The position numbers and the translations under genes are program-made. From assembly GCA_029552945.1 (NCBI GenBank), contig JAKPDD010000046.1:139612-203611 (forward strand): a stretch of DNA of 64,000 bases, read 5' to 3'. The stretch's first letter is position 1. Each line of letters begins with the position of its first letter. The DNA comes from Spirochaetota bacterium. GTDB lineage: Bacteria > Spirochaetota > GWB1-36-13 > JAKPDD01. The notes beneath the pieces are model-generated. The model was not told where the DNA came from, made no database searches, and saw only the letters and a program-made list of their open reading frames with translations. Of the stretch, positions 28,140 through 54,458 are shown in pieces.

Positions 28140-31100
28140 ATGGAAAATTATTTAGGATTATATGATCTTTTTTGCCCTAATTGTCACGGAATAAACTCTG
28201 ATAACAGAAATATACACAAATATCCATGCAGTTTATGTCTTGAAAAGTATGAAGAAAATAATAACAATAATAAGGATTACGTTGATTATGTATATCAAAT
28301 GTTGGTTGAAAATAAAAGTTTAAAAGATTATAAGGATATAAAAGACATTAAAGATAATTATAATAGATATAGAAAATTTTTTAAGAAGCTTATACTTGCT
28401 GAGCCATGGAGTATTCAGAGGTCATGGTTTAAGAGGGTATTAAAAAATAAGAGTTTTACTGCTTTAGCACCAACAGGAATTGGTAAAACAACATTCGGTA
28501 TTATTACAGCATTATATTATGCAGTTTACGAAAAAAAGAGATCACTTATAATTCTTCCAAATACAAGCTTGTTGCTTAATATAAAAGCTAAAATTGAGGA
28601 ATACTTAAATAAAATTAATAAAAGGCTAAATATACTATTTTATTCATCTTCTTTTATCAATACACCTTTAAAGAAAAAAGAGTTTTTTAAATTGCTTGAT
28701 AAAAACAAGTTTGATGTACTTGTTATTACTAATAATTTTCTTTCACGTAACTTTAAATCTGTTGAAAATAAGTTTTTTGACTTTGTATTTGCTGATGATA
28801 CTGATTCACTTTTAAGAACATCAAAAAATATAGAATATGTTTTAAAACTTATAGGCTTTTCAGATGATGATATTAAATTGGGTTATGAATATGTAAAGTC
28901 ATCATTTGTTTTTAGTAAAAAGTCAGGTGATAATGAGTTTTTAATCAATCATATTTCTCTTAAAAGACAACTTGAATCTTTAAGTATAAATAAGAAAATT
29001 GGTATACTTGTTTTATCTACTGCTACTAATAAAGCAAAAGGTATAAGAGTAAAGTTATTTAAAGCTTTATTATCTTTTGATATTGGTGAAAGGGCAAAGT
29101 CTGGCTCAAACGTTGTTGACCTTTATGATAGCTTTTCTATTGATAATCTTAGAAAGTATATTAAATTGCTTGGTAGTGGTGGAATTATATTTGTGCCTAT
29201 TTATAAAGGGCTTGAGTATGCCAATTATATTTTTGATTCTTTAAAAGATGAATTTATAGTAAAGGTTATTTCATCGGATAATGTAAAAAATATTATTGAA
29301 GAGTTTTCTGAAGGTAAAATAGATATTATAATTGGGGTTGCTTCATCATACGGTCTTCTTGTAAGGGGGATAGACCTTCCTGAAATTATACGATATGCAA
29401 TTTTTGTAGGGGTACCTTCTTATAAGTTTAAAGTTGATTTTTCAGGTGATAGTATTAATTCCTTTCAGCTTATAAGATTATTGGGTGCATTATCTTATGT
29501 TACTGAAGGAGAAGATAAATTAAAGATAGAAAGACAGTTAAAAACTTTAAAAAAGAATTATTTTAATACAAAAGTTGTAGAATATTCACTATTACTTGCA
29601 AAAGATTATATTAAAAGAAATGATATTGTTGAACTTTTGAAAAATACAAACGAGGTTATCTTTAAAGAGGATAAAGATGGTCAATATTTTCTTGTACCAG
29701 ATGTACCTACCTATATACAGGCTTCTGGAAGGACTTCAAGGTTGAGTATTGATGGTTTTACTAAAGGTCTTTCCATAATACTGGAAGATGATAGGAGGCT
29801 TATATCATTTTTAGAAAAGAGAATAAAGTGGCTTGAAGATAGGAGTATTAAAAATTTTAATGATGTTGATATAAGTAAAATAATCTCTCAAATTGATAAA
29901 GATAGAGAAAAAATAAAAATCTTGAAAGAACATAATAAAATAAAAGTTATTAAAGATAAAACATTTACAGCACTTATGATTGTTGAGTCTCCTACTAAAG
30001 CAAATTTAATAGCTAATCTAATAGGTAAGCCTACAACAAGGTATTTAAAATCAATGAATGTATATGAGGTTTCCTTAGGTAGTATGACTCTTATAATTGG
30101 TTCAATAATGGGACATATTTATGATATAACTACTGAAAATTATGGTTTTTATGGGGTAGATGTAGAGAATAATAGATATATTCCAAAATATCTGACTATA
30201 AAGGTTTGTAAAAAGTGTAAAAAGCAGTTTACATCTTATAATTCCTGCCCTTTGTGTGGTTCAGATGAGTTTTATGATAAAAAGGACATAATAATTGATC
30301 TTATAGAGGTCTCAAAAGAGGTTGATACTGTATTTATATCGACTGACCCTGATAGTGAAGGAGAGAAGATAGGATGGGATATCTATTCTTTATTATCGCC
30401 TTATGTTTCAAAAATAAAGAGGGTTGTTTTTCATGAGATAACTAAGAGGGGAATTCTTGAAGGATTCAAAAATATTGGTTTAATAAACCAATCTCTGGTA
30501 AAAGCTCAAATATTAAGAAGAATTCAGGATAGATGGATAGGTTTTAAGTTTTCCAGTGAATTAAAAGACTTTTTTGATGAATATAATATTTCTGCAGGTA
30601 GGGTCCAAACTCCAGTTTTAGGTTATATTATTGATAGAGTAGAGTATAATAAAAATAATAAAAGAAAATATTATAGAATAAAAACTGAGTTTTTTTCGGT
30701 TGATGTTCCAAAGGATGATATAAAAAATATAAAAAAAATAGATACTATTTTAATTGAGGATTCAAAGTATAAAAAGGAAAAAATAGCTCCTATGCCACCA
30801 TTTACGACTGATAGCCTGCTATCAAGTGTAAATAGGGTATTAAAACTGTCAGTTTCAGAAGCTATTAGTATTGCTCAAGACCTTTTTGAAAATGGTCTTA
30901 TAACATATCATAGAACAGACTCTATTCATGTTTCAGATTATGGTAAGAGCCTTGCATATGATTATATAAATGAAAAATTTAATAAAGATGTAATATATAC
31001 AAGGTCATGGGGTGAGGAAGGAACACACGAATGTATAAGGCCGACAAGAGGGCTTGATGTTAAAGAGTTGAGAGAAATGATATATGAAGGAGACCTTTTT

Positions 31101-31667
31101 GTTACTAAGAACATGACTCAGAAACATTTTTCTGTTTATGATTTAATATTTAAAAGGTTTATAGCTTCTCAGATGAGAGATGTAGTTGTTAAAAAGCAGG
31201 AACTAGATGTAAAAATAGATTCTTATTCTACCACTATTTCTTTAAATGTTGATATATATAAAGATGGTTGGAACCTTGTAAGTCCTATTAGTGTTGTTAA
31301 ACCTGTAAAGAAAAAGAGTATAAAAATAGATTCTAAAGAAAAGTTTGTAAAACCTGATAAACCACTATTTGACCAGGCTAGTGTAATAGAGATAATGAAA
31401 GAAAGGGGACTTGGTAGACCTTCAACATATAGCCAGATAATATCGACTTTATTATCAAGGGGTTATATTATTGAGGGTAAGTATAATAAACTTATTCCCA
31501 CTAAAAAGGGTGTTAGTGTATATAAATATCTTATTGAGAAATATAAAAACATTTTTTCTGAAGAGAGAACAAGGGCATTAGAAGAATTAATGAAAGAGAT
31601 TGAAAATGGAAGAAAAGATTACAAAGAAATTTTATCAGATATTTATAATGAAATAAAAACAAACTAG
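28140..31667 (+). CDS. rgy: Reverse gyrase (helicase-like domain fused to type IA topoisomerase)
   Basis: 1175 aa; N-terminal zinc finger CPNCHG...C..C, helicase motif I APTGIGKTTFG after IQRSWFKRV, TOPRIM LMIVESPTKA, catalytic-Tyr region LITYHRTDS. Confidence 0.9.
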   Translation: MENYLGLYDLFCPNCHGINSDNRNIHKYPCSLCLEKYEENNNNNKDYVDYVYQMLVENKSLKDYKDIKDIKDNYNRYRKFFKKLILAEPWSIQRSWFKRVLKNKSFTALAPTGIGKTTFGIITALYYAVYEKKRSLIILPNTSLLLNIKAKIEEYLNKINKRLNILFYSSSFINTPLKKKEFFKLLDKNKFDVLVITNNFLSRNFKSVENKFFDFVFADDTDSLLRTSKNIEYVLKLIGFSDDDIKLGYEYVKSSFVFSKKSGDNEFLINHISLKRQLESLSINKKIGILVLSTATNKAKGIRVKLFKALLSFDIGERAKSGSNVVDLYDSFSIDNLRKYIKLLGSGGIIFVPIYKGLEYANYIFDSLKDEFIVKVISSDNVKNIIEEFSEGKIDIIIGVASSYGLLVRGIDLPEIIRYAIFVGVPSYKFKVDFSGDSINSFQLIRLLGALSYVTEGEDKLKIERQLKTLKKNYFNTKVVEYSLLLAKDYIKRNDIVELLKNTNEVIFKEDKDGQYFLVPDVPTYIQASGRTSRLSIDGFTKGLSIILEDDRRLISFLEKRIKWLEDRSIKNFNDVDISKIISQIDKDREKIKILKEHNKIKVIKDKTFTALMIVESPTKANLIANLIGKPTTRYLKSMNVYEVSLGSMTLIIGSIMGHIYDITTENYGFYGVDVENNRYIPKYLTIKVCKKCKKQFTSYNSCPLCGSDEFYDKKDIIIDLIEVSKEVDTVFISTDPDSEGEKIGWDIYSLLSPYVSKIKRVVFHEITKRGILEGFKNIGLINQSLVKAQILRRIQDRWIGFKFSSELKDFFDEYNISAGRVQTPVLGYIIDRVEYNKNNKRKYYRIKTEFFSVDVPKDDIKNIKKIDTILIEDSKYKKEKIAPMPPFTTDSLLSSVNRVLKLSVSEAISIAQDLFENGLITYHRTDSIHVSDYGKSLAYDYINEKFNKDVIYTRSWGEEGTHECIRPTRGLDVKELREMIYEGDLFVTKNMTQKHFSVYDLIFKRFIASQMRDVVVKKQELDVKIDSYSTTISLNVDIYKDGWNLVSPISVVKPVKKKSIKIDSKEKFVKPDKPLFDQASVIEIMKERGLGRPSTYSQIISTLLSRGYIIEGKYNKLIPTKKGVSVYKYLIEKYKNIFSEERTRALEELMKEIENGRKDYKEILSDIYNEIKTN

Positions 31668-44300: not shown

Positions 44301-45295
44301 TGAGAAGTAACTTTGCTTTCTATTTTTTTAATTCTCCTTATGAGGATCCTGTTCTTTATGTGGAGCAGCTTAATTCAAGAGATAACCTTGTTTTTGATCT
44401 TGGTGATGTATCAAAAGTACCTAATTCTCTACTTATGAGAATAAAGTGGGTTTTTATATCCCATGCCCATATAGACCATTTTTGTGGTTTTGTAAAGTTT
44501 TTAAGGACAATCTTAAAAATTGTTGGCAAAGAGGTATATGTCTTTGGACCTGAAGGTATTGCTGATAATGTGGAAGGGGTCTTAAAATCATTTACTTGGA
44601 ATCTTATAGATAATTATAACATTAAGTTTTATGTAAAAGAGATAGGGAGCAGAATAAAAACATACTTTTTTTCTTCATCTGAAAAGTTTTCAAAAGAACT
44701 TATTTCTGAGAGTGATTTTACAGATTTAATTCTGGATGAAGAAAGTTTTCTAGTTAAAACCTCTATAATGGACCATAAAATACCTGTGTTAGGTTTTAGA
44801 CTTGAAGAAAAAAATAGATATGCTGTTGATAAAGAAAGACTTTTAGCATTTGAACTTAAGCCTGGTAAATGGCTTACTGATGTAAAAAAAAAATTAATTA
44901 AAGATGAGATTGATGATTATATCAAAGTTGATAATAAGGTTTTTAAAATAAGAGAACTTGTCGAGAGCAAAATACTTTTTCTCAAAAAAGCTCCCTCTCA
45001 TGCTTATATTACTGATATTGGTTTTACAAAAGATAATTTTATAAAGGCCTGTTCTCTGTCAAAAGATGTTAAAAACCTTTTTATAGAGACTCATTTTACC
45101 CATAAAGAGATTGATATGGCAAGAAAAACATATCATCTTACTGCTTATCAGGCTGGTATAATTGCAGGTGCATCAAGAGCTGAGAGGGTAAGAATATTTC
45201 ATTTTTCTCAAAGATATATTAAGAATAAAATAGGAGAGAAAGAACTTTATTATGAACTTAATAAAGCAAGGTCTTTATTTGGTTACAATTTTTAA
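44300..45295 (+). CDS. Metallo-beta-lactamase fold hydrolase (RNase Z-like)
   Basis: 331 aa; HxHxDH motif (ISHAHIDHFCGF); TAATG overlap with the hydE stop. Confidence 0.55.
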   Translation: MRSNFAFYFFNSPYEDPVLYVEQLNSRDNLVFDLGDVSKVPNSLLMRIKWVFISHAHIDHFCGFVKFLRTILKIVGKEVYVFGPEGIADNVEGVLKSFTWNLIDNYNIKFYVKEIGSRIKTYFFSSSEKFSKELISESDFTDLILDEESFLVKTSIMDHKIPVLGFRLEEKNRYAVDKERLLAFELKPGKWLTDVKKKLIKDEIDDYIKVDNKVFKIRELVESKILFLKKAPSHAYITDIGFTKDNFIKACSLSKDVKNLFIETHFTHKEIDMARKTYHLTAYQAGIIAGASRAERVRIFHFSQRYIKNKIGEKELYYELNKARSLFGYNF

Positions 45296-46701
45296 ACTTC
45301 CTCATTTATTTCTTCTTCATTTTCATCAGAATTATCGTCAGAAGAACTTGTACCAAAATATTCATACAACTTTCTGTGAAGTGTTTTTCTGCCAATATTC
45401 AGTATTTTAGCTGCTTTAGACTTATTGTTTTTGACAAACTTCAGTGTTGACAAAATATATATTTTTTCAACTTCACTTAGCGGGAGACCAAGATTTATTT
45501 TTACAAAGTCTTTCTCAATTATCTCACTTTTTATATGAGGAGGAATATCTTTTTCTGTTATTTCATTTCCTCTCGCAAGTACAACCATACCTTCAATCAA
45601 GTTTCTAAGTTCTCTTATATTTCCTGGCCATGAATATGATTCTAATATAGCCATAGCTTTTGGCGATATAGTAAGCATTGGCTTATTGTTTATCTGACAA
45701 AACTCTTTTATAAAAGCATTAACAAGTAATGGAATGTCATCTTTTCTTTCTCTTAAGGGTGGCATTTTTATTGATACAACTTTTAATCTATAATATAGAT
45801 CTTCTCTGAAGTTTTTTTTCTGTACTTCTTGTAGTAGATCTCTATTTGTAGCTGTTATTACTCTTACATCAACCTTTATTGTTTTTGTTCCACCAACTCT
45901 TTCAAACTCTTTTTCCTGCAATACTCTTAACAATTTTACCTGAATAATTGGAGAAATCTCGCCTATTTCATCTAAAAATAGTGTCCCACCATCAGCAAGT
46001 TCAAACCTTCCCTTTTTCATTGCTATTGCACCTGTAAACGCACCTTTTTCATGACCAAATAGCTCTGATTCGAGAAGGTTTTCGTTAAGGGCTGCACAGT
46101 GTAGTTTTACAAGTGGTTTATCTGCTCTATCACTTAACCTGTGAATAGCATTTGCTATTAACTCTTTTCCTGTTCCACTTTCACCTTCTATAAGTACAGT
46201 TGCTTTTGTTGGTGCAACCTGCTTTACAATATCCATTACGCTTTTAAGTGATGATGAACTTCCTATTATATTTTCAATTCCATATTTTTCATTAAGTTGT
46301 TTTTTAAGTTCTATGTTTTCAAGTATTATATTTTTTTCTTTTATTGCTCTTTCTATTGTTAGTATTAGTTTATCAATATCAACTGGTTTTGTAAAAAAGT
46401 CATATGCACCCTTTTTCATTGATTCGACAGCAGTTTCAACATTACCATGGCCTGTAAGCATTATTACTTTTATATATGGTTTAATGTTATTTATCATTTC
46501 AAGTAATTTTGTACCACTTATTACTGGCATTTTTATGTCTGTTATTACTAAATCAAAATCATTATTTTTTATAAACTCAAAAGCTTCTTCACCATTTGAT
46601 GCTGTTTCAATATTATATCCTTCAAGTTCAAGGGTTTTTTTAAGACCTTCTCTTATATTTTTTTCATCATCAACTATAAGTATATTTCCTGTTGTGTTCA
46701 T
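45292..46701 (-). CDS. Sigma-54-dependent response regulator (NtrC family)
   Basis: 469 aa; receiver ([16 protein letters not shown]), [15 protein letters not shown]-terminal HTH, acidic tail. Confidence 0.9.
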
Positions 46702-46704
46702 TTA

Positions 46705-47232
46705 CTACTCCTTACTTCTTAAAAATGTTAGTTTATTTAGCCCGTATCTCCTTACATCTATTTTATTTAGTAGAAAACTTTCTATTTCTACATATTTTGG
46801 ATGTTGAATTATTATTAATGAATTTTTAATTAGCCTAGATTTTTCTATTTCTCTTGTAAGAGATGGCCAGTGTATAGTGTCATAGGGGGGAGAAAAAAAT
46901 ATGAAATCATTTTCTATCTCATAGTTTTTTAAGAATGTAAATGCATTAATACCTATAACCCTACCATTTACATTAAGTTTTTTTATATTTTCTTCTAACA
47001 ATTTTATTGCATTTCTTTCATTCTCTATAAATATAACTTCTTTAGCACCTCTGCTATAAGCTTCAAAGCCAACACTTCCTGTTCCAGCAAAAACATCAAT
47101 AAATATTTTATTTATAATATCATCTCCTAAAATATTAAAAAGTGCAGACTTTACAACAGATGTTGTTGGTCTTAGCCCTTTACCCTGGGTATCTATTTTT
47201 CTACCCTTTAGTTTTCCAGCTATTATTCTCAT
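46705..47232 (-). CDS. rsmD: 16S rRNA (guanine-N2)-methyltransferase RsmD
   Basis: 175 aa; SAM-binding DVFAGTGSVGFEA and PPY motif. Confidence 0.8.
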   Translation of the reverse strand: MRIIAGKLKGRKIDTQGKGLRPTTSVVKSALFNILGDDIINKIFIDVFAGTGSVGFEAYSRGAKEVIFIENERNAIKLLEENIKKLNVNGRVIGINAFTFLKNYEIENDFIFFSPPYDTIHWPSLTREIEKSRLIKNSLIIIQHPKYVEIESFLLNKIDVRRYGLNKLTFLRSKE

Positions 47233-47392
47233 ATATTTTTTGACCTTATTTTATAAATTATTTTATTTAAATGTAATAAAAAGACACACAAGAGACAAAT
47301 TTACACATGCTAATTTTTTCAAATATTTTACTTTGATCTATTTTTTAATTTTCTTGAAAGTATTATTTATAAATTTTATTACAAAAATTTTT

Positions 47393-47420
47393 TTGTAATT
47401 TTTCTTTTAAGTATTATATT
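47393..47420 (+). promoter_or_regulatory. Candidate sigma-70-type promoter for the tRNA cluster (-35 TTGTAA, 16-bp spacer, -10 TATATT)
   Basis: Hexamers at 47393-47398 and 47415-47420, about 20 bp upstream of the first tRNA; AT-rich context makes chance matches likely. Confidence 0.3.
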
Positions 47421-47439
47421 TAAATTCGCAAGATTGAAA

Positions 47440-47512
47440 GCTGGCGTAGCTCAATCGGTAGAGCAGCTGACTTGTAATCAGCTGGTTGTGGGTTCAATTC
47501 CTATCGCCAGCT
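47440..47512 (+). tRNA. tRNA-Thr (anticodon UGU)
   Basis: Cloverleaf by eye: acceptor GCTGGCG/CGCCAGC, D-arm GCTC/GAGC, anticodon stem GCTGA/TCAGC, loop CTTGTAA, T-loop TTCAATT. Confidence 0.8.
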
Positions 47513-47516
47513 CTTA

Positions 47517-47599
47517 GGGTAGGTGCCCGAGTGGTCAAAGGGAGCAGACTGTAAATCTGCCGCCGGAAGGCTACAGAGGTTCAAGTCCTCTCCTGCCCA
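47517..47599 (+). tRNA. tRNA-Tyr (anticodon GUA)
   Basis: Acceptor GGGTAGG/CCTGCCC with one G-U pair, anticodon stem GCAGA/TCTGC, loop CTGTAAA, long variable arm, T-loop TTCAAGT. Confidence 0.8.
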
Positions 47600-47613
47600 T
47601 TCAATCTAATAAG

Positions 47614-47686
47614 GGGCGGTTAGCTCAGCTGGGAGAGCATCTGCCTTACAAGCAGGAGGTAACAGGTTCGAGCCCTGTACCGCCCA
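47614..47686 (+). tRNA. tRNA-Val (anticodon UAC)
   Basis: Acceptor GGGCGGT/ACCGCCC, D-arm GCTC/GAGC, anticodon stem TCTGC/GCAGG, loop CTTACAA, T-arm ACAGG-TTCGAGC-CCTGT. Confidence 0.8.
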
Positions 47687-48205
47687 CATTTGCCCCTATA
47701 TATCATATCTTCTTATAGTTAAATGGATAAAAATCTTGATTAGGGATATCAATTTCAAGTCTGTATTTCTAAACTTCCCAATATTGAATATCCTAATTTA
47801 TAATCTATTTTTTATTTCATTTTTTTGACTGAAAGGCTCTTTAGCTAGAAATCAATAATTATTTTTATTATCTTTTTAAGAAAACAAGGGATAGTTTTTT
47901 TATTTTTTGATTCCAATTAAGGTTTTTTATATATTTAAATTGTTACAATTTTTTTAAATTAATATTTTGTTCTTTAAACTCAATAGTCAATAAGGTAATT
48001 AATATTTTCTTAATTTTAATATTTTAGTTTTAGGATTTTTAATTTAAAAACTTCTGAGGGTAAGTATATTTTAAACGATAAGGGTTACATAACACTTTTA
48101 GGTTTTAAAGTAATACCACCTATACTCTCATCTTTACTTGGGAAAGACTTTATAATTACTGTTGCTGAAGAGTTCAATTATCTTGAAGCAGAGGATAAAG
48201 AAGAA

Positions 48206-49141
48206 TTGGATAAAATGATTGAAGAGACTAAAGAAAGGCTTGGGGCTAGTTTCCACTGTTTTAGAGATGAGATCAAAAAAGGTTACAGTTTTAGAGTAAC
48301 ATATTCTTATCATACAAAAGATTATTCTTTGAATGGGACACCTTACGATAAGCTTATGTTTCCTGATAGATTAAAAGGTGGGCTTGAAATAAATAGTGAT
48401 AACAGGAGTGCTATATACCTTGCATTAAAGGAGAGAAGAATAGTATCTTCTGTTTTACCCAGAAAAGTATTTGGTGCACCATTATTATCATATTCATCTC
48501 CTATTTTTGATGATAATGGAATTCTAATTGGAGCTGTCTCTTTTTCTAACGATATTACTCAGATTCTTGATATGGCAAAGTCACTGGGTAATATACTCGA
48601 TAGTGATAGTGATACATTGCTTAAAAGAATAGCAGGTAGTTTAAAAAATGAACTTGAAGATGCAAAAATAATAAGTCAAAATCTTAAAGAGGAGTCTTTT
48701 ATAACTGAAAAGTCATCTAAGGCTATTATTGATATAACAAAAGATATTATATCAGTATCTAACAAACTGAATATACTTGCCTTTAATACAGCTATTGAAG
48801 CAACTAAAGTAGGAGGAAGAAATAGTGGTATAAACATAATAGCCAAAGAAATGAGAGCTATTGCTGATATTACAAAAGATTATTCAAAACAGATTTATTC
48901 TAATTCAAGTCTTTTATTTCAATCATCGAAAAAAGTTTATGAGAACTCTAATAATCTTCTGGAAAAAGCCGGAAAATTAGAAAATGATAGTAAAGTTTTA
49001 TTTGATACTTCGGCAAAGATAACAACTCAAAAAGATGAACTTGCCAACCTTGTTAGAATTTCGATAGATGATATAGCAAAGTCTCAAGATGATCTTAATG
49101 CTATTTTTACACTTATAAAAAATGAAAAAAATGGTTTTTAA
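48206..49141 (+). CDS. Soluble chemoreceptor-like protein: PAS-like N-terminal region plus MCP signalling-domain core
   Basis: LNILAFNTAIEATKVGGRNSGINIIAKEMRAIA matches the conserved MCP signalling motif (LNLLALNAAIEAARAGE.GRGFAVVA.EVR.LA); no TM helix; start uncertain (TTG 48206 or ATG 48215), and the frame is open upstream to 48020. Confidence 0.5.
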   Translation: MDKMIEETKERLGASFHCFRDEIKKGYSFRVTYSYHTKDYSLNGTPYDKLMFPDRLKGGLEINSDNRSAIYLALKERRIVSSVLPRKVFGAPLLSYSSPIFDDNGILIGAVSFSNDITQILDMAKSLGNILDSDSDTLLKRIAGSLKNELEDAKIISQNLKEESFITEKSSKAIIDITKDIISVSNKLNILAFNTAIEATKVGGRNSGINIIAKEMRAIADITKDYSKQIYSNSSLLFQSSKKVYENSNNLLEKAGKLENDSKVLFDTSAKITTQKDELANLVRISIDDIAKSQDDLNAIFTLIKNEKNGF

Positions 49142-49222: not shown

Positions 49223-50035
49223 ATGAAAATCTTTAAAATACTTACGATTTTTACAATTTTATCTTTTTTTTCTTATTTCCTTTATTCACAAAATATTCCT
49301 AAAAATATACCTTCTGATAAAGTCAATGTAGTTGATTCAAATAATGAAAAAAAGGATAATGTCTCAGATGGTGATCAAACTAAAAAAGATGAAACTAAAA
49401 AAGAGGAAAAAGTTGATGATGGACAAAAGGATATAGATAAAACTACGGAAAATAACAAAGATGAGAAAAAAGATGAAAATAATCAACCAGTTAAAGAGGA
49501 TAAAATAGATAGTATTGAAAAAACTCTTGACAAAGAAAATCTTAATTATAATTATAATATACAACAACCTAAAAGAGTGAAAAATTACACAGAAAAGGGA
49601 ATTATAGAGATAGGAGGAATAAGCTGGTTTGAAAACAAAGCACTAAGAAGTGGTAATTTAAAAAGTATATTATGGACAAATGATTTTATATACTTTTTTA
49701 TTCTTGATTATTTTTTGATGGGTATAAGAGTGGACTTTAATTATAACTTTACAGATAGTATTTATAAATTAACGGGGTATTATGTTATTGGTGGGGCATT
49801 TCCTGTGAGTAATAGTTTTTTTATTATGTTAAGTCTTAATTCTGGATATTCTCAGAATAATTATGAAACATCAAAGTTATTGTTTTCTTATGGCAATGAA
49901 TTATCATTAAAAATAAAGCTTAAAGATCATTTTTTAATGAGTATTGGAATTATGTATAGTTTTTATACAGACTTTTCTCAAGAATTTTTTAATGATAAAT
50001 TAACTGCTAACCTATCTTTCTCTGGTTATTTTTAA
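49223..50035 (+). CDS. Outer-membrane beta-barrel protein with Lys/Asp/Glu-rich linker
   Basis: 270 aa; signal peptide, charged low-complexity region (KKDETKKEEKVDDGQKD), C-terminal beta-strand pattern ending in Phe. Confidence 0.45.
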   Translation: MKIFKILTIFTILSFFSYFLYSQNIPKNIPSDKVNVVDSNNEKKDNVSDGDQTKKDETKKEEKVDDGQKDIDKTTENNKDEKKDENNQPVKEDKIDSIEKTLDKENLNYNYNIQQPKRVKNYTEKGIIEIGGISWFENKALRSGNLKSILWTNDFIYFFILDYFLMGIRVDFNYNFTDSIYKLTGYYVIGGAFPVSNSFFIMLSLNSGYSQNNYETSKLLFSYGNELSLKIKLKDHFLMSIGIMYSFYTDFSQEFFNDKLTANLSFSGYF

Positions 50036-50051: not shown

Positions 50052-50453
50052 ATGTTATGTAAGGATGCAGAGGAACTTATAAAAAAATATAAAGCTGGAT
50101 CTATAACAGCAGATAACTTTTTGTTACTTGTAAGTCATATTAAAGAATGTTCTAAATGTAAAGCTCTTTTTGATAGGGTTGAAGCATCATTGGGTAATAT
50201 TGCTAAAAAAAATTTATTTACAACTATTTATAATAATTTTCTTGAATGGTGTGAAAGAAAATATAGCGAAAAAAAGATCTATACAAAACGTAATTTTTAC
50301 ACTTCTGTTGTTTTTATTATAGGAATTTTACTATATATATTATCTATTTTAAATAAAAGTTATACTTTTAATACTTTTTTTATTATCCTGGCTAGTTTTA
50401 TTGGATTTATTGCAATTTTAATTTTTTTTATAGTTTATTTAGTGAAAGAATAA
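50052..50453 (+). CDS. Membrane protein with N-terminal zinc-finger anti-sigma-factor-like motif
   Basis: 133 aa; C-x25-H-x3-C-x2-C (C3, HIKECSKC) resembles the zinc anti-sigma motif; C-terminal TM helices; no sigma factor gene adjacent. Confidence 0.4.
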   Translation: MLCKDAEELIKKYKAGSITADNFLLLVSHIKECSKCKALFDRVEASLGNIAKKNLFTTIYNNFLEWCERKYSEKKIYTKRNFYTSVVFIIGILLYILSILNKSYTFNTFFIILASFIGFIAILIFFIVYLVKE

Positions 50454-50478
50454 TTTTGTTTTACAGAAGAGGTTCAAG

Positions 50479-53400
50479 ATGAGTAGTATTGTAAAAAATC
50501 TTATTTTTCTTTTTGTTTTAATATTATTTTACTCAATTATAACACTTTTATTAAACTTCAAGGTTGAGTCTGATAGAAAGTTAAGAAAAAAAACAACTAA
50601 TAATATTTTTATTTTACTTTTTGGTTTTAGTTCATCTTTTTTAGTTCTTGATCTATGGTTATTATTAAGTTCTGTTGGTATTTATAATACATTTGGCTGG
50701 TGGGGAGGCTATGCTTTTTTAATTGGTGTTCTAGTAGGGATTTTCTTTTTATCTATGGTATATAAAAGACTTCAGTATTCTTTTAAAAGATATAAAATAT
50801 ATACACCATTTGATTTTTTATCATTTAGGTACCCTGGCTTTAATTTTATATCAAAGGTAGCTAATTATATATTTATGTTAGCATTTTTTCCAATGATTTT
50901 TTTTCAAGTTAAAGTTTTACAGGTACTATTATTTCCTGATATATCTTCATATCTAGGCCTGGCAATAATAATATTCCCTATGCTTATACTATTTCTTTTT
51001 AATGATAATAAAGATAAAAGAGTTCCTTATCTTTTTATTGCTTTTCTTGGTATAGTTTTTATGGTAGCAGGTATATTTGCAAATTATAACACAATTTCAC
51101 AATTATATTTTATTAAACCTAAAATAAGTAATTTTTTAGTAGCTATTCTTTTAGGATTCTCTTTTTATCTTATTATGCCGAGGAACTTTTCAGCTTATTC
51201 ATATAAAAAGATTGATTTTTCTGAGATAGATTCTACAAGAAGAAAGTTTTTTATATCTCTTATTATAGGTGTTATACTTTTATTAAACATCCTGCCTTTA
51301 GGTGGGTTTTATGTAAGTAATAACTTTTTAAGTTTAATTTTAGTATTAACTGTTGCATGTGGTGTTGGAATTTCTCAGTTATTCGCTATTAAGTCTATTA
51401 TATACTCTGGTTTAAAAAGGTATAACACATATTCTATGATGCATGTATCTATAATATCAATTTTTATTTATGTAATACTTACGTTTTTATTTAATTATTT
51501 TATTGAATTGAAAAATATTAACTATAGTAGATTATATATCTGGTCTATTTCTATTCTTCCTATAATTGTTGTTCCCTATATAGGCGGGTTATTTATTAAA
51601 AGGGCAAGGAGTATAAACTTTTATTTAAGTCTTATAGCTGGGCTTATAGTATGGTATCATATGGTTGTAAATGAAGAAATATTGGGTTTTACTATAAGTT
51701 TATTAAAAATCAAGTTTACTACTGAAACTCAGATCTTTTATCCATTTTTAGCATCATTAATATTCTTTATAATTCCACTACCGTTTATAAGAAAAGCTCC
51801 TGAAAATGTAAGAATTTTACTTGAACCTGAAAGTATCGTTATTGAGAGTTTTCTTGAAAAATATGATGATTACAAAAGTTTACTTTATACAAAAGAGGGC
51901 TTAAAAGTATTTATATTGTTTTTTGATAGAAAAAATGAGTTTTTTACAAAAGAGTTTCTAGTTTATATTACTAAATTACCAAGAACAAGGTTAACAAGTA
52001 TATTAGAGGCATTAAAAAAGTTTGGATTTATTGAACAATACGGTGAATATTACACATATAAAAAACAGGATAAAGAGTTTGAAAGACTTTTGGATAAACT
52101 TATAATAGGATATCATGCTGTTGAGAATTTATTAAGATATAAAGCGGAGAAAGACTTTGAAGAATATAGAATTAATGTTATAAAGAAAACAGATGAAATT
52201 GAAACTCATTTTAATATGCTTGAACTTCTCAATGAGGTTTCTAAAGGTCTTTCTAATATAACATCATTTAATGAATTATATAGAAAAATAACGTCTCTTG
52301 TTGTGAATAATCTTGGGTTTGAATGTTCTGAGTTTTTTATGATTAAGAAAAATAATGATAAATATGAGTTTGTCCCTGTTTCTCTATTTTTCTCAAATTA
52401 TAGACACTTAATGTCATCACTTGATTTTTATTCAAGCTATGTTAAGAATAATGAATACATGATGGCAGCTCTTAATAAAGCTATAAATGAAAATATTGTT
52501 GTAATAAATGACCCGAAAGAAATTGAAAAACTTAATACACTTGAAAAATATAGTTCAATAGGTTTTTCACTAATTGTTCAGGATAATCAGCCTTTTGCAA
52601 TATTAGTCTATGGTTATATGAGTGAAGGAAGGACAGTTACATCATCTGACTTGCAAAAAATAGATTTTATTATAAACAATCTTACTCAGACATCTATTAT
52701 TATTTCTTTGTATGAAAGTTTGGAAGAAAAAATAAGACAAAGAACAGCTGAGTTAGAAAAGGCTAACCAGGAATTAAAAGTATTTAACCAGAAATTAAGT
52801 GCATTAAACAAAGAGATAAAAAGGGAAATGATGACAGCATCTTCTATACAAAAGGCTATTTTACCTTCTGAATTTCCTTATCCAGATTATGTTGAAATAG
52901 CTGCGAAATTAAAAGCAATGCCAGACCTTACACTTACTGAAGAAGAGAGAAAAAGGATAGATATCAGTGGTGACTACTATGATGTATTTGATATGGGAGA
53001 TGGTAAGATAGGTATTCTTATAGCAGATGTTACAGGTCATGGTATACCATCAGCTTTAATTACAACAATGGCTAAAATATCATTTTATACTCATGCTATT
53101 GATGGTGGTTCAACAGCAGAAATATGTGATAGAGTAAACAAAGATATTTATGAAGCTATTGGTATAGGTGATACTGGTTTTTATGTAACAGTATTTTTTA
53201 GCATATATGATACAAAAACTGGTAAAATCCAATTTACAAATGCAGGACATCATAAAGGTATTCTTGTTAGAAATAATGGAAGAATAGAATATTTAGATAC
53301 ACAGGGATTTTTTATAGGTTCGTTTGAGGGTGTTGAATATAATTATGGCGAAGCTTATTTTGATGAAGGAGATACTTTTATTTTATATACTGATGGTATA

Positions 53401-53991
53401 GTTGAGCAAAAATCTGAAAAAGATGAGTTTTATGAAGAGATATTTTATAATAAGTTATCTTCAATTTCCGCTAAAAAGCCAAGTGAATTTGTTGAACATA
53501 TATTTTCTGATATAGATGTTTTTAGAGGTTCTTATCCTATTAAGGATGATATGACATTGATTGTTTTAAGAGTAAAAAAGGTTATTGAAAGACCAACTTC
53601 TGAAAAAACAAGTGCTAATATAACTGAGATTTCTTCTCTTATAAAAGATATTATTGAGGAATATAATTCCAAAAAAAAGCTATCAGACAAAAATTTATCA
53701 GTATTAAATAATATAATAGATGATGTTAATAATCCTACACTTTATTACATAAAAGCTATGATTGAGTTTAAAGAGAATAATTTTGAGATATCATCTAAAT
53801 ATTTTAAAAAAGCATTGTCCTTATTAAAACAACCAAATACAATACTTTTAAATAATGCTGGGGTATCATTTTATAAAACAGGTGATTATCAGGAAGCTAA
53901 GAAATGTTGGGATAAAGTTTTGTCAATAGATCCTAATAATGCTAATGCACTTAAAAATATAAAACTTTTAGAAAATAAAAAATTAACTTAA
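50479..53991 (+). CDS. Multidomain sensor phosphatase: 13-TM transporter-like domain, GAF-like region, coiled coil, PP2C/SpoIIE serine phosphatase, C-terminal TPR
   Basis: 1170 aa; about 13 hydrophobic helices in the first 440 residues; PP2C-like motifs ISGDYYDVFD, ADVTGHGIPSAL, ILYTDGIVEQ; TPR-like C-terminus. Confidence 0.7.
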   Translation: MSSIVKNLIFLFVLILFYSIITLLLNFKVESDRKLRKKTTNNIFILLFGFSSSFLVLDLWLLLSSVGIYNTFGWWGGYAFLIGVLVGIFFLSMVYKRLQYSFKRYKIYTPFDFLSFRYPGFNFISKVANYIFMLAFFPMIFFQVKVLQVLLFPDISSYLGLAIIIFPMLILFLFNDNKDKRVPYLFIAFLGIVFMVAGIFANYNTISQLYFIKPKISNFLVAILLGFSFYLIMPRNFSAYSYKKIDFSEIDSTRRKFFISLIIGVILLLNILPLGGFYVSNNFLSLILVLTVACGVGISQLFAIKSIIYSGLKRYNTYSMMHVSIISIFIYVILTFLFNYFIELKNINYSRLYIWSISILPIIVVPYIGGLFIKRARSINFYLSLIAGLIVWYHMVVNEEILGFTISLLKIKFTTETQIFYPFLASLIFFIIPLPFIRKAPENVRILLEPESIVIESFLEKYDDYKSLLYTKEGLKVFILFFDRKNEFFTKEFLVYITKLPRTRLTSILEALKKFGFIEQYGEYYTYKKQDKEFERLLDKLIIGYHAVENLLRYKAEKDFEEYRINVIKKTDEIETHFNMLELLNEVSKGLSNITSFNELYRKITSLVVNNLGFECSEFFMIKKNNDKYEFVPVSLFFSNYRHLMSSLDFYSSYVKNNEYMMAALNKAINENIVVINDPKEIEKLNTLEKYSSIGFSLIVQDNQPFAILVYGYMSEGRTVTSSDLQKIDFIINNLTQTSIIISLYESLEEKIRQRTAELEKANQELKVFNQKLSALNKEIKREMMTASSIQKAILPSEFPYPDYVEIAAKLKAMPDLTLTEEERKRIDISGDYYDVFDMGDGKIGILIADVTGHGIPSALITTMAKISFYTHAIDGGSTAEICDRVNKDIYEAIGIGDTGFYVTVFFSIYDTKTGKIQFTNAGHHKGILVRNNGRIEYLDTQGFFIGSFEGVEYNYGEAYFDEGDTFILYTDGIVEQKSEKDEFYEEIFYNKLSSISAKKPSEFVEHIFSDIDVFRGSYPIKDDMTLIVLRVKKVIERPTSEKTSANITEISSLIKDIIEEYNSKKKLSDKNLSVLNNIIDDVNNPTLYYIKAMIEFKENNFEISSKYFKKALSLLKQPNTILLNNAGVSFYKTGDYQEAKKCWDKVLSIDPNNANALKNIKLLENKKLT

Positions 53992-54092: not shown

Positions 54093-54458
54093 ATGCATTT
54101 ACAGGAATTAATAAAAAAGAACTTGGAACAAATAAGGATGCTTTATTTACAAACATTTGAGGAATTAACAAATAATCAGACTAATATAGAAATTGTAATA
54201 AAAGAGGTGCTCGATAAAAAAATTACAGAGGACCAAGCTGTAGAAAAAATAAATAAAGCTGTTTTATATGCTGAAGAGCTTCAAAAAGGTTTTTCTAAAA
54301 AGATGAAAGAGAGTCTTAACTCTTTAATTTCATGTTTTCCTGATGTTGATTCTGAAGAGGTAAAAAAGATAAAAGATGAGATTGAAAAAATTTACCTTGA
54401 AATGGAGGATGGTGTATCACGATTTGTTGAAAAGGTAAAAGAACTTTATAAGATATAG
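54093..54458 (+). CDS. Hypothetical helical protein
   Basis: 121-aa ORF between the sensor phosphatase gene and dxs; no recognised motif. Confidence 0.3.
   Translation: MHLQELIKKNLEQIRMLYLQTFEELTNNQTNIEIVIKEVLDKKITEDQAVEKINKAVLYAEELQKGFSKKMKESLNSLISCFPDVDSEEVKKIKDEIEKIYLEMEDGVSRFVEKVKELYKI

Follow-up and report, generated by a model that had tools for sequence, protein, structure and literature searches.

Organisation of the locus

The 64,000-nucleotide stretch analysed here (contig JAKPDD010000046.1, hereafter the window) comes from a metagenome-assembled genome (MAG) of an uncultured member of the Spirochaetota, and is AT-rich with a GC content of ~27%. We are concerned with two adjacent genes on its forward strand, the first coding for a 133-residue membrane protein and the second for an 1170-residue protein in which a transporter-like membrane domain is joined to a phosphatase domain of the SpoIIE family. 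Both open reading frames (ORFs) lie exactly where a preliminary description, made from the sequence without database searches, had placed them (50052-50453 and 50479-53991), and an NCBI record annotated as 'SpoIIE family protein phosphatase' has 100% identity to the larger product. The two genes, their predicted domains and their immediate neighbours are arranged as follows, with the basis of each assignment in parentheses.

49223-50035, forward strand: secreted protein, 270 aa (ORF, signal peptide/transmembrane segment, alignment of six homologues)
50052-50453, forward strand: small membrane protein, 133 aa, partner of the phosphatase (ORF, family of 11)
50052-50267, forward strand: predicted cytoplasmic helical N-terminal domain of the small protein, aa 1-72, with C3, H29, C33 and C36 (alignment, AlphaFold2 model)
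50289-50447, forward strand: predicted two-transmembrane hairpin of the small protein, aa ~80-132 (hydropathy, model helices, charge distribution)
50479-53991, forward strand: sensor phosphatase, 1170 aa (ORF, profile and homologue searches)
50479-51798, forward strand: predicted SLC5/SSS-fold domain, aa 1-440, 13 transmembrane segments (topology, PDB profile match, Foldseek)
51892-52059, forward strand: predicted winged-helix-like domain, aa ~472-527 (AlphaFold2 model, weak profile matches)
52072-52254, forward strand: predicted long helix, aa 532-592, leading from the winged helix to the GAF domain (AlphaFold2 model)
52267-52617, forward strand: predicted GAF domain, aa ~597-713 (AlphaFold2 model, Foldseek, GAF_2 match of a homologue)
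52642-52863, forward strand: helical linker of the coiled-coil type, aa ~722-795 (model helix, conservation)
52999-53577, forward strand: PP2C/PPM phosphatase domain of the SpoIIE/RsbU/SiaA type, aa 841-1033 (Pfam PF07228)
53743-53958, forward strand: two to three C-terminal tetratricopeptide repeats (TPRs) (TPR_1, TPR_2 and TPR_8 above cutoffs)
54093-54458, forward strand: helical protein, 121 aa (conserved in the neighbourhood across lineages)

The genes are closely spaced, with 16 nt between the stop codon of the 270-aa ORF and the small gene, and a gap of 25 nt between the small gene and the phosphatase gene. A purine-rich stretch resembling a ribosome binding site precedes the start of each of the 270-aa, 133-aa and 1170-aa ORFs, so that the small gene has a ribosome binding site of its own. 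The phosphatase gene is followed by an AT-rich gap of 101 nt, the 121-aa ORF, a further 16 nt and then dxs. A scan for promoters and terminators gave counts that did not differ from those in shuffled sequence.

Domain architecture of the 1170-residue protein

The phosphatase domain is the most readily recognised part of the protein. Pfam SpoIIE (PF07228) matches residues 841-1033 (E=1.3e-39; 136.6 bits against a cutoff of 25) over positions 2-192 of its 192 profile positions, in agreement with the PP2C/SpoIIE assignment of the preliminary description. The motifs SGDYYD, DVTGHG, YTDG and DD.T are all present and are invariant in seven homologues, in which D832, D835, D850, G853-H854-G855, D972-G973 and D1023-D1024 are likewise unchanged; from what is known of the PPM family we take these Asp and Gly residues to have metal-ligand roles, and the domain is predicted to be catalytically intact. 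The nearest solved structures are 6k4e (SiaA-like), Rv1364c, Pseudomonas aeruginosa RssB and SpoIIE, and the best NCBIfam match is SiaA. Phosphatases of the RsbU/SpoIIE/SiaA-type PPM clade normally act on STAS-type partner-switching proteins. Neither HisKA nor HATPase_c is found by Pfam in the 1170-aa protein, whose output domain is SpoIIE/PP2C. The C-terminal TPRs that had been proposed are present at residues ~1090-1160, where TPR_2 (44.6 bits), TPR_1 (42.8 bits) and TPR_8 (34.5 bits) all score above their cutoffs and consensus-TPR structures are matched in a PDB search.

At the other end of the protein, hydropathy analysis predicts ~13 transmembrane segments within residues 7-437, the number given in the preliminary description. 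Lysine and arginine residues are concentrated on alternate loops (31 on loops predicted to be inside versus 7 outside), which indicates an N-out/C-in topology. The Pfam SSF family (PF00474) does not match the query or any of ten family members, even at E<=10, and no transporter family in Pfam or NCBIfam is matched by the transmembrane domains of these proteins. A PDB profile search with ten of the transmembrane domains has a single match at E<=10, to the SLC5 domain of the sensor kinase CbrA (10ED_A; E=3.2e-4), and the match is collinear in two stretches (82-183/65-168 and 300-455/337-502). An AlphaFold2 model of residues 1-760, built from a 10-sequence alignment (mean pLDDT, the per-residue confidence score, 73.9), has 49 Foldseek matches in the PDB at E<=1e-3, and the best of these are all SLC5 members, namely SGLT2, DUR3, SMCT1, SiaT, CHT1, SGLT1, vSGLT and NIS (E-values of 2e-6 to 1e-3, TM-scores of 0.4-0.58); ApcT, an APC transporter, ranks below them. 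The SLC5 Foldseek matches, taken with a sequence match to CbrA alone, lead us to predict an SLC5/SSS-fold domain that has diverged strongly and is closest in sequence to a sensor and not to a transporter. The symporter-like domain of the preliminary description is thus recovered in the CbrA profile match and in the model fold but not in Pfam, and the likeness that it drew to transporter-like sensor kinases is borne out by CbrA being the sole sequence match among solved structures.

An exhaustive phmmer search with residues 1-740 against 1.84 billion representative proteins identifies nine relatives, none of which bridges to ordinary SSS proteins. Among the relatives the complete 13-transmembrane SLC5 fold and its topology are kept down to 20-24% identity. 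Several cytoplasmic-loop motifs of the domain are conserved (R117-Y118, P234-R235-x-F237 and N177), as are the transmembrane residues G49, W60 and Q300, and invariant polar residues are few.

The region between the membrane and phosphatase domains contains one element that the preliminary description missed, and the architecture that it listed was to that extent incomplete. An H-beta-H-H-beta-beta unit is modelled at residues 472-527 with a pLDDT of ~85, and in this segment the TrmB, MarR, Rrf2 and HTH_24 families each match some of the family members, weakly, with MarR, ArsR and IclR structures among the weak PDB matches. We predict that this is a winged-helix-like domain, with weak but consistent sequence support. 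An alternative identity of the domain following the thirteenth transmembrane segment (TM13) as STAC was rejected because the model shows a winged helix and the weak matches are to winged helix-turn-helix families; matches of the same segment to F1L were judged to be compositional in view of the model fold and the other matches. A long helix follows at residues 532-592, modelled with pLDDT values of 51-74.

A GAF-like region had also been proposed, and here the evidence is of two kinds. Pfam does not detect a GAF domain in the query itself, but the aligned region of a homologue (P0032) matches GAF_2 (31.4 bits against a cutoff of 28.6), and the model contains an alpha/beta domain at residues 597-713 (pLDDT 80-90) for which Foldseek returns the GAF structures 3oov (TMt 0.69), 3ci6 and 6oaq. 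On the strength of the modelled fold and the homologue profile we assign residues ~597-713 as a predicted GAF domain. It is joined to the phosphatase by a strongly conserved linker, LYESLEEKIxQRTAEL…IQKAILP, which is helical in the model at residues 722-759.

The 133-residue membrane protein

The small protein belongs to a family of 11 sequences with 40-60% identity, of which the first 46 residues are highly conserved. The C-x25-H-x3-C-x2-C arrangement noted in the preliminary description is present as C3-x25-H29-x3-C33-x2-C36, and the four residues are invariant in the 11 homologues; the spacing fits that of the ligands in zinc anti-sigma (ZAS) proteins such as RsrA and RsiW. AlphaFold2 predicts helices at residues 3-15, 20-32, 34-53, 55-72, 80-100 and 106-132, with pLDDT values of 86-89 for residues 1-40, and locates H29 where helix 2 ends and C33 and C36 where helix 3 begins. 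The last two helices form a transmembrane hairpin in an N-in/C-in orientation, with an outer loop of ~9 residues and a C-terminal tail of five, so that the protein is predicted to have no extracytoplasmic domain.

The similarities of the helical domain all point to anti-sigma factors. All ten Foldseek matches in the PDB are anti-sigma domains (ChrR, RsiW, MucA and RslA), at E>=0.46 and with probabilities up to 0.98. The ChrR model (TIGR02451) matches 10 of the 11 members, with a best E-value of 1.1e-3 and 18.9 bits against a cutoff of 124.5, and a second anti-sigma model (NF052368) matches six, at 14.1 bits against a cutoff of 50. RsiW is the top PDB profile match (E=0.15) and is aligned on the H-x3-C-x2-C segment (H30/C34/C37), and zf-HC2 (PF13490) matches a single member (E=0.02). 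No anti-sigma profile in Pfam or NCBIfam exceeds its curated cutoff for the small protein. Since all of the similarity signals are to anti-sigma factors but fall below threshold, we describe the protein as anti-sigma-domain-like and not as a member of the family, the resemblance being consistent although below threshold in every test. The zinc anti-sigma-like identity suggested previously is seen here as a uniform but weak signal. We note that JGI names a 133-aa homologue (P0026) 'amino acid permease', which looks like an annotation artefact that echoes the transporter context.

Conservation of the gene pair

Co-occurrence of the two genes in related genomes, proposed as a test in the preliminary description, is found throughout. 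The small gene is located directly upstream of the phosphatase gene in all eight lineages in which the contig continues, with a spacing of 13-30 nt or an overlap. The genes flanking the pair on the outside vary and encode a methyl-accepting chemotaxis protein (MCP), HSP20, thioredoxin reductase (TrxB), FliL or UvrC. The small protein is otherwise rare, and is present in a single genome, Spirochaetes bacterium GWB1_36_13, among those of 185,579 species, and at four metagenome loci.

The most distant member of the phosphatase family (P0034) shares 24% identity over the N-terminal 740 residues, and at its locus (L012) the end of a 145-aa gene overlaps the phosphatase start codon. By hhalign (probability 97.4%, E=1e-11) the 145-aa product is a homologue of the small protein; it keeps the two transmembrane helices and has E, A, N and W in place of the four Cys/His residues. 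Retention of a distant partner without the Cys/His ligands indicates that the partnership is old and independent of the zinc site, in which case, to judge from this alignment, zinc or redox chemistry cannot be its core.

In a soluble relative (P0035) there are only the winged helix, GAF and PP2C domains, with neither the transmembrane domain nor the small partner. At its locus, the place of the two-transmembrane partner is taken by a gene for a 328-aa lipoprotein-like protein (L013, 1491-2477, forward strand), 8 nt upstream of P0035; this protein matches nothing in Pfam and has a Cys-containing signal peptide.

Three further genes are conserved alongside the pair. A secreted protein (255-318 aa in the homologues) is encoded directly upstream of the small gene in seven of the eight lineages. 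The 270-aa representative in the window has a signal peptide, a variable linker rich in K, E and D, and a conserved C-terminal portion of ~150 residues ending in SFSGYF, a terminus that is invariant in the six homologues aligned. It has no Pfam or meaningful PDB match, as a match to FcpA covers the signal peptide and low-complexity part alone, and it is possible that this protein is a small outer-membrane beta-barrel. A PHP-domain protein of 220-232 aa starts at, or overlaps, the phosphatase stop codon in five of the eight lineages, and is absent from the window and from its closest relatives. Finally, an all-helical protein of 121-125 aa is encoded in six of the eight lineages. It is better conserved than any other gene product of the neighbourhood, with 66-75% identity across lineages in which the phosphatase is ~40% identical, remains in the cluster also where dxs is not downstream, and has no Pfam, NCBIfam or meaningful PDB match. 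The coordinates of these last two genes at the related loci are as follows.

PHP-domain protein: L003, 10996-11667; L006, 4085-4753; L007, 8947-9627; L009, 5469-6167; L011, 11789-12451
Homologues of the 121-125-aa protein: L001, 11023-11385; L003, 11708-12073; L007, 9667-10041; L009, 6212-6580; L011, 12515-12886

STAS, RsbW-like (HATPase_c_2) and Sigma70 domains are absent from the 30 window ORFs scanned, and no STAS, RsbW-like or sigma gene is annotated in the flanks (±7-10 kb) of the related loci in the eight lineages. The statement in the preliminary description that no such genes lie nearby therefore holds for both of these sets.

A proposed transceptor complex with a phosphatase output

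Nearly all understanding of bacterial transporter-derived sensors ('transceptors') comes from histidine kinases, CbrA and CrbS among them. CbrA has a 13-transmembrane SLC5 domain fused to signalling domains, with a STAC four-helix bundle after TM13; its SLC5 domain transports histidine, and transport alone does not support the phenotype. Not until 2026 was a small peptide encoded upstream demonstrated to belong to the CbrA complex. This peptide, CbrX, is a two-transmembrane hairpin with N-in/C-in orientation that is encoded just upstream of CbrA and translationally coupled to it, and in the structure (PDB 10ED) it is bound to TM3 and TM8 of the SLC5 domain, while a model has it at the interface of the dimer.

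Our analysis shows the folds of the domains, that the catalytic motifs are intact and that the two genes are obligately syntenic. We propose that the two genes encode a single membrane transceptor complex of the CbrXA type, in which the output is a PPM phosphatase and the small protein is docked as a regulatory subunit, and we assign this reading a probability of about 50%. In this model, a solute bound or carried by the SLC5-like domain would cause a conformational change, and the change would be relayed through the winged helix, the GAF domain and the linker to control dimerisation and activation of the PPM domains, by the general mechanism of the RsbU family. The hairpin of the small protein would dock, in the manner of CbrX on CbrA, onto the SLC5-like domain, maybe at the dimer interface, and would thereby bring the anti-sigma-like helical domain beside the cytoplasmic signalling domains, where it could serve as a regulatory subunit. 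The Cys/His zinc site may stabilise the helical domain in most lineages, or may make it redox-sensitive. The phosphatase would dephosphorylate a phosphoprotein encoded elsewhere, for which a STAS-type protein is the default expectation given the PPM clade, and the TPRs could provide a docking platform. It is from the PPM clade that we infer a role as a partner-switching input.

Several observations weigh against this proposal. Neither a STAS nor an RsbW gene was found among the scanned window ORFs or in the surveyed flanks of the relatives. The SLC5 assignment derives from a model of moderate confidence (mean pLDDT 73.9 with ten aligned sequences, TM-scores 0.45-0.58) and a modest sequence match, with Pfam SSF negative, and the transmembrane domain could be a degenerate, non-binding scaffold. 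The secreted, PHP-domain and 121-aa proteins are co-conserved yet are left unexplained by a transceptor model. In addition, the analogy between CbrX and the small protein is topological only, since CbrX lacks a cytoplasmic domain and CbrA functioned without it in the assay concerned.

Other explanations may be considered in declining order of probability. The small protein might be a genuine ZAS anti-sigma factor that holds an extracytoplasmic function (ECF) sigma factor encoded elsewhere, with the phosphatase as its signal input; the sigma factor would be freed when the phosphatase dephosphorylates the small protein or alters its conformation. Such a reading is near to that of the preliminary description. 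The ligand spacing is as in ZAS proteins, the four ligands are invariant in the 11 sequences, and every weak profile or fold signal is to anti-sigma factors (ChrR in 10/11, NF052368 in 6/11, RsiW, and Foldseek in 10/10). Against these similarities, ECF anti-sigma factors are normally co-transcribed with their sigma factor, and here none of the eight lineages has a sigma gene next to the pair; moreover, all four ligands are replaced in the distant paired homologue, and a two-transmembrane hairpin lacking an extracytoplasmic domain is unlike the typical single-pass membrane anti-sigma factors. We consider this explanation unlikely, and CbrX-CbrA appears to be a better-grounded model for the small protein than an orphan anti-sigma factor, which is the weaker reading.

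The transceptor proposal also assumes that the membrane domain senses a solute. The domain might instead sense no ligand and be mainly a scaffold for anchoring, localisation or dimerisation, like the polytopic N-terminus of SpoIIE, with signals entering through the winged helix and GAF domains and the TPRs. The full SLC5 fold with its 13 transmembrane segments is kept to 20-24% identity, which is beyond the needs of an anchor, the conserved loop motifs and transmembrane residues suggest functional constraint, and a dedicated two-transmembrane partner is co-conserved, all of which make a simple scaffold a distinctly doubtful proposition, even though the soluble P0035 indicates that the winged helix-GAF-PP2C module can work without a membrane domain, the domain is too divergent for Pfam SSF and has few invariant polar residues, and CbrA without its SSS domain still signals when overexpressed (PMC7918813).

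A more elaborate variant, which as a joint claim we think improbable, has the anti-sigma fold recruited for a job that is unrelated to sigma factors. The small protein would be anchored by its CbrX-like hairpin at the SLC5 dimer interface as an obligate subunit, and its anti-sigma domain would clamp the winged helix and GAF domains of the phosphatase, in the manner of an anti-sigma factor on sigma domain 4, thereby gating PPM dimerisation upon solute flux; the zinc or thiol state would contribute in most lineages. Together with the secreted protein with a C-terminal Phe, the PHP-domain protein and the 121-aa protein, the pair would then constitute a so far undescribed trans-envelope signalling cassette of one spirochaete lineage.

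That the 1170-aa protein is primarily a working solute transporter, with the GAF, PP2C and TPR portion regulating transport or reporting flux secondarily, is very unlikely. It has an SLC5 fold, and the related SLC5 domain of CbrA is a histidine transporter, but signalling domains, among them a catalytically intact phosphatase, make up ~730 of its 1170 residues, there is no detectable sequence similarity to a bona fide transporter (CbrA being the sole PDB profile match at E<=10), the family is extremely narrow, which would be unusual for a nutrient transporter, and in CbrA itself transport alone is insufficient for the phenotype. An incidental adjacency of the two genes without joint function is effectively refuted by the synteny data, as they are adjacent in 8/8 lineages at 13-30 nt or overlapping while the outer flanks vary, and no member of the small-protein family was found elsewhere (a single additional genome among 185,579 species, and four metagenome loci).

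Other genes in the window

Upstream of the cluster there are three tandem tRNA genes on the forward strand (47440-47512, 47517-47599 and 47614-47686) within a stretch (47232-48206) that has no ORF of at least 60 aa. Just upstream of the cluster, a forward-strand gene (48206-49141) encodes a protein of 311 aa that has an MCP signalling domain and lacks transmembrane segments, and whose homologue is called as 365 aa in L001; the MCP gene adjoins the cluster in the closest relatives only. A sigma-54-dependent response regulator is encoded on the opposite strand 3.5 kb upstream (45292-46701, reverse strand).

A further ORF of 1175 aa (28140-31667, forward strand) was entertained as a paralogue of the phosphatase and rejected, since it encodes a reverse-gyrase-type protein, with DEAD/ResIII helicase, Toprim and topoisomerase IA domains in the reverse-gyrase architecture. 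Reverse gyrase normally marks thermophiles and hyperthermophiles, and here it is found in a spirochaete MAG of 27% GC.

Comparison with known systems

The phosphatase shares with RsbU, RsbP, RsbZ, SiaA and SpoIIE a SpoIIE domain in which all of the metal-binding Asp residues are present. The general mechanism described for RsbU-type phosphatases has N-terminal sensors, including GAF domains, bring about dimerisation and activation of the PPM domains by way of crossing helical linkers (PMC12143880), and the succession of GAF domain, helical linker and PPM domain seen here fits that scheme. It differs from these proteins in having an SLC5-fold sensor and a winged helix before the GAF domain and TPRs after the PPM domain, and in that its neighbourhood contains no gene for a STAS substrate, an RsbW kinase or a sigma factor.

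The small protein resembles the ZAS anti-sigma factors RsrA, ChrR, RsiW and RslA in its C/H-x(24-26)-H-x3-C-x2-C arrangement at the junction of helices 2 and 3, and in weak profile and fold matches that are uniformly to anti-sigma factors. Unlike them, it passes no curated threshold, has no cognate sigma gene adjacent, ends in a two-transmembrane hairpin without a periplasmic domain, can dispense with the ligands in a distant orthologue, and is paired with a phosphatase.

Foldseek also aligns ~300-315 columns of IclR-type regulators (PcaR, 2g7u and 2ia2) to the winged helix, long helix and GAF domain. The TM-scores are 0.26-0.33 with a large root-mean-square deviation, however, and the two domains are arranged differently; the module here is also predicted to be membrane-tethered and is linked to a phosphatase, and DNA binding is unlikely.

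The fusion itself had been described in the preliminary account as not recognisable as a characterised architecture, and this is correct insofar as none has been characterised, but such a combination is already recorded. A 2021 review of SSS proteins that included a SMART survey lists SSS proteins with GAF, PP2C_SIG and HATPase_c domains in Actinobacteria, all uncharacterised (PMC7918813). Compared by description only, these share with the spirochaete protein an SSS-type membrane domain, a GAF domain and a PP2C of the sigma-regulating type, and differ in having an RsbW-like HATPase_c and a Pfam-recognisable SSF domain, both of which are absent here; no winged helix, TPR or ZAS-like partner is reported for them. 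We found no paper in the literature describing a bacterial transceptor-phosphatase. A transporter domain fused to PP2C is thus on record as an idea and is not in itself new. What is new here is the extreme divergence of the SLC5 domain, the presence of a winged helix instead of STAC, the C-terminal TPRs, and a strictly co-conserved two-transmembrane partner resembling an anti-sigma domain without any sigma factor adjacent. Restriction of the family to a small number of uncultured spirochaetes limits its practical impact.

The closest parallel is with CbrXA and related SLC5-STAC sensors such as CrbS and RpuS, with which the 1170-aa protein shares an N-terminal 13-transmembrane SLC5/SSS-fold domain fused to cytoplasmic signalling domains. 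As in CbrXA, a two-transmembrane hairpin protein with a predicted N-in/C-in orientation is encoded directly upstream and tightly coupled, the likeness being one of position and topology. The output here is a PPM Ser/Thr phosphatase, whereas in CbrA it is a histidine kinase (PAS-DHp-CA); a winged helix is located where CbrA has STAC, a GAF domain takes the place of PAS, and there are C-terminal TPRs and no Pfam SSF match. Unlike CbrX, the small partner has an additional Cys/His helical domain of ~75 residues. The locus would therefore represent the same design, an SLC5-fold sensor with a small two-transmembrane partner encoded upstream, with another output and other adaptors (winged helix and GAF versus STAC and PAS). 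As such it supports the idea that sensor modules and outputs are exchangeable, and that small hairpin partners may be general to SLC5-type sensors, and it provides a natural setting in which to ask whether a domain resembling those of anti-sigma factors can work when there is no sigma factor.

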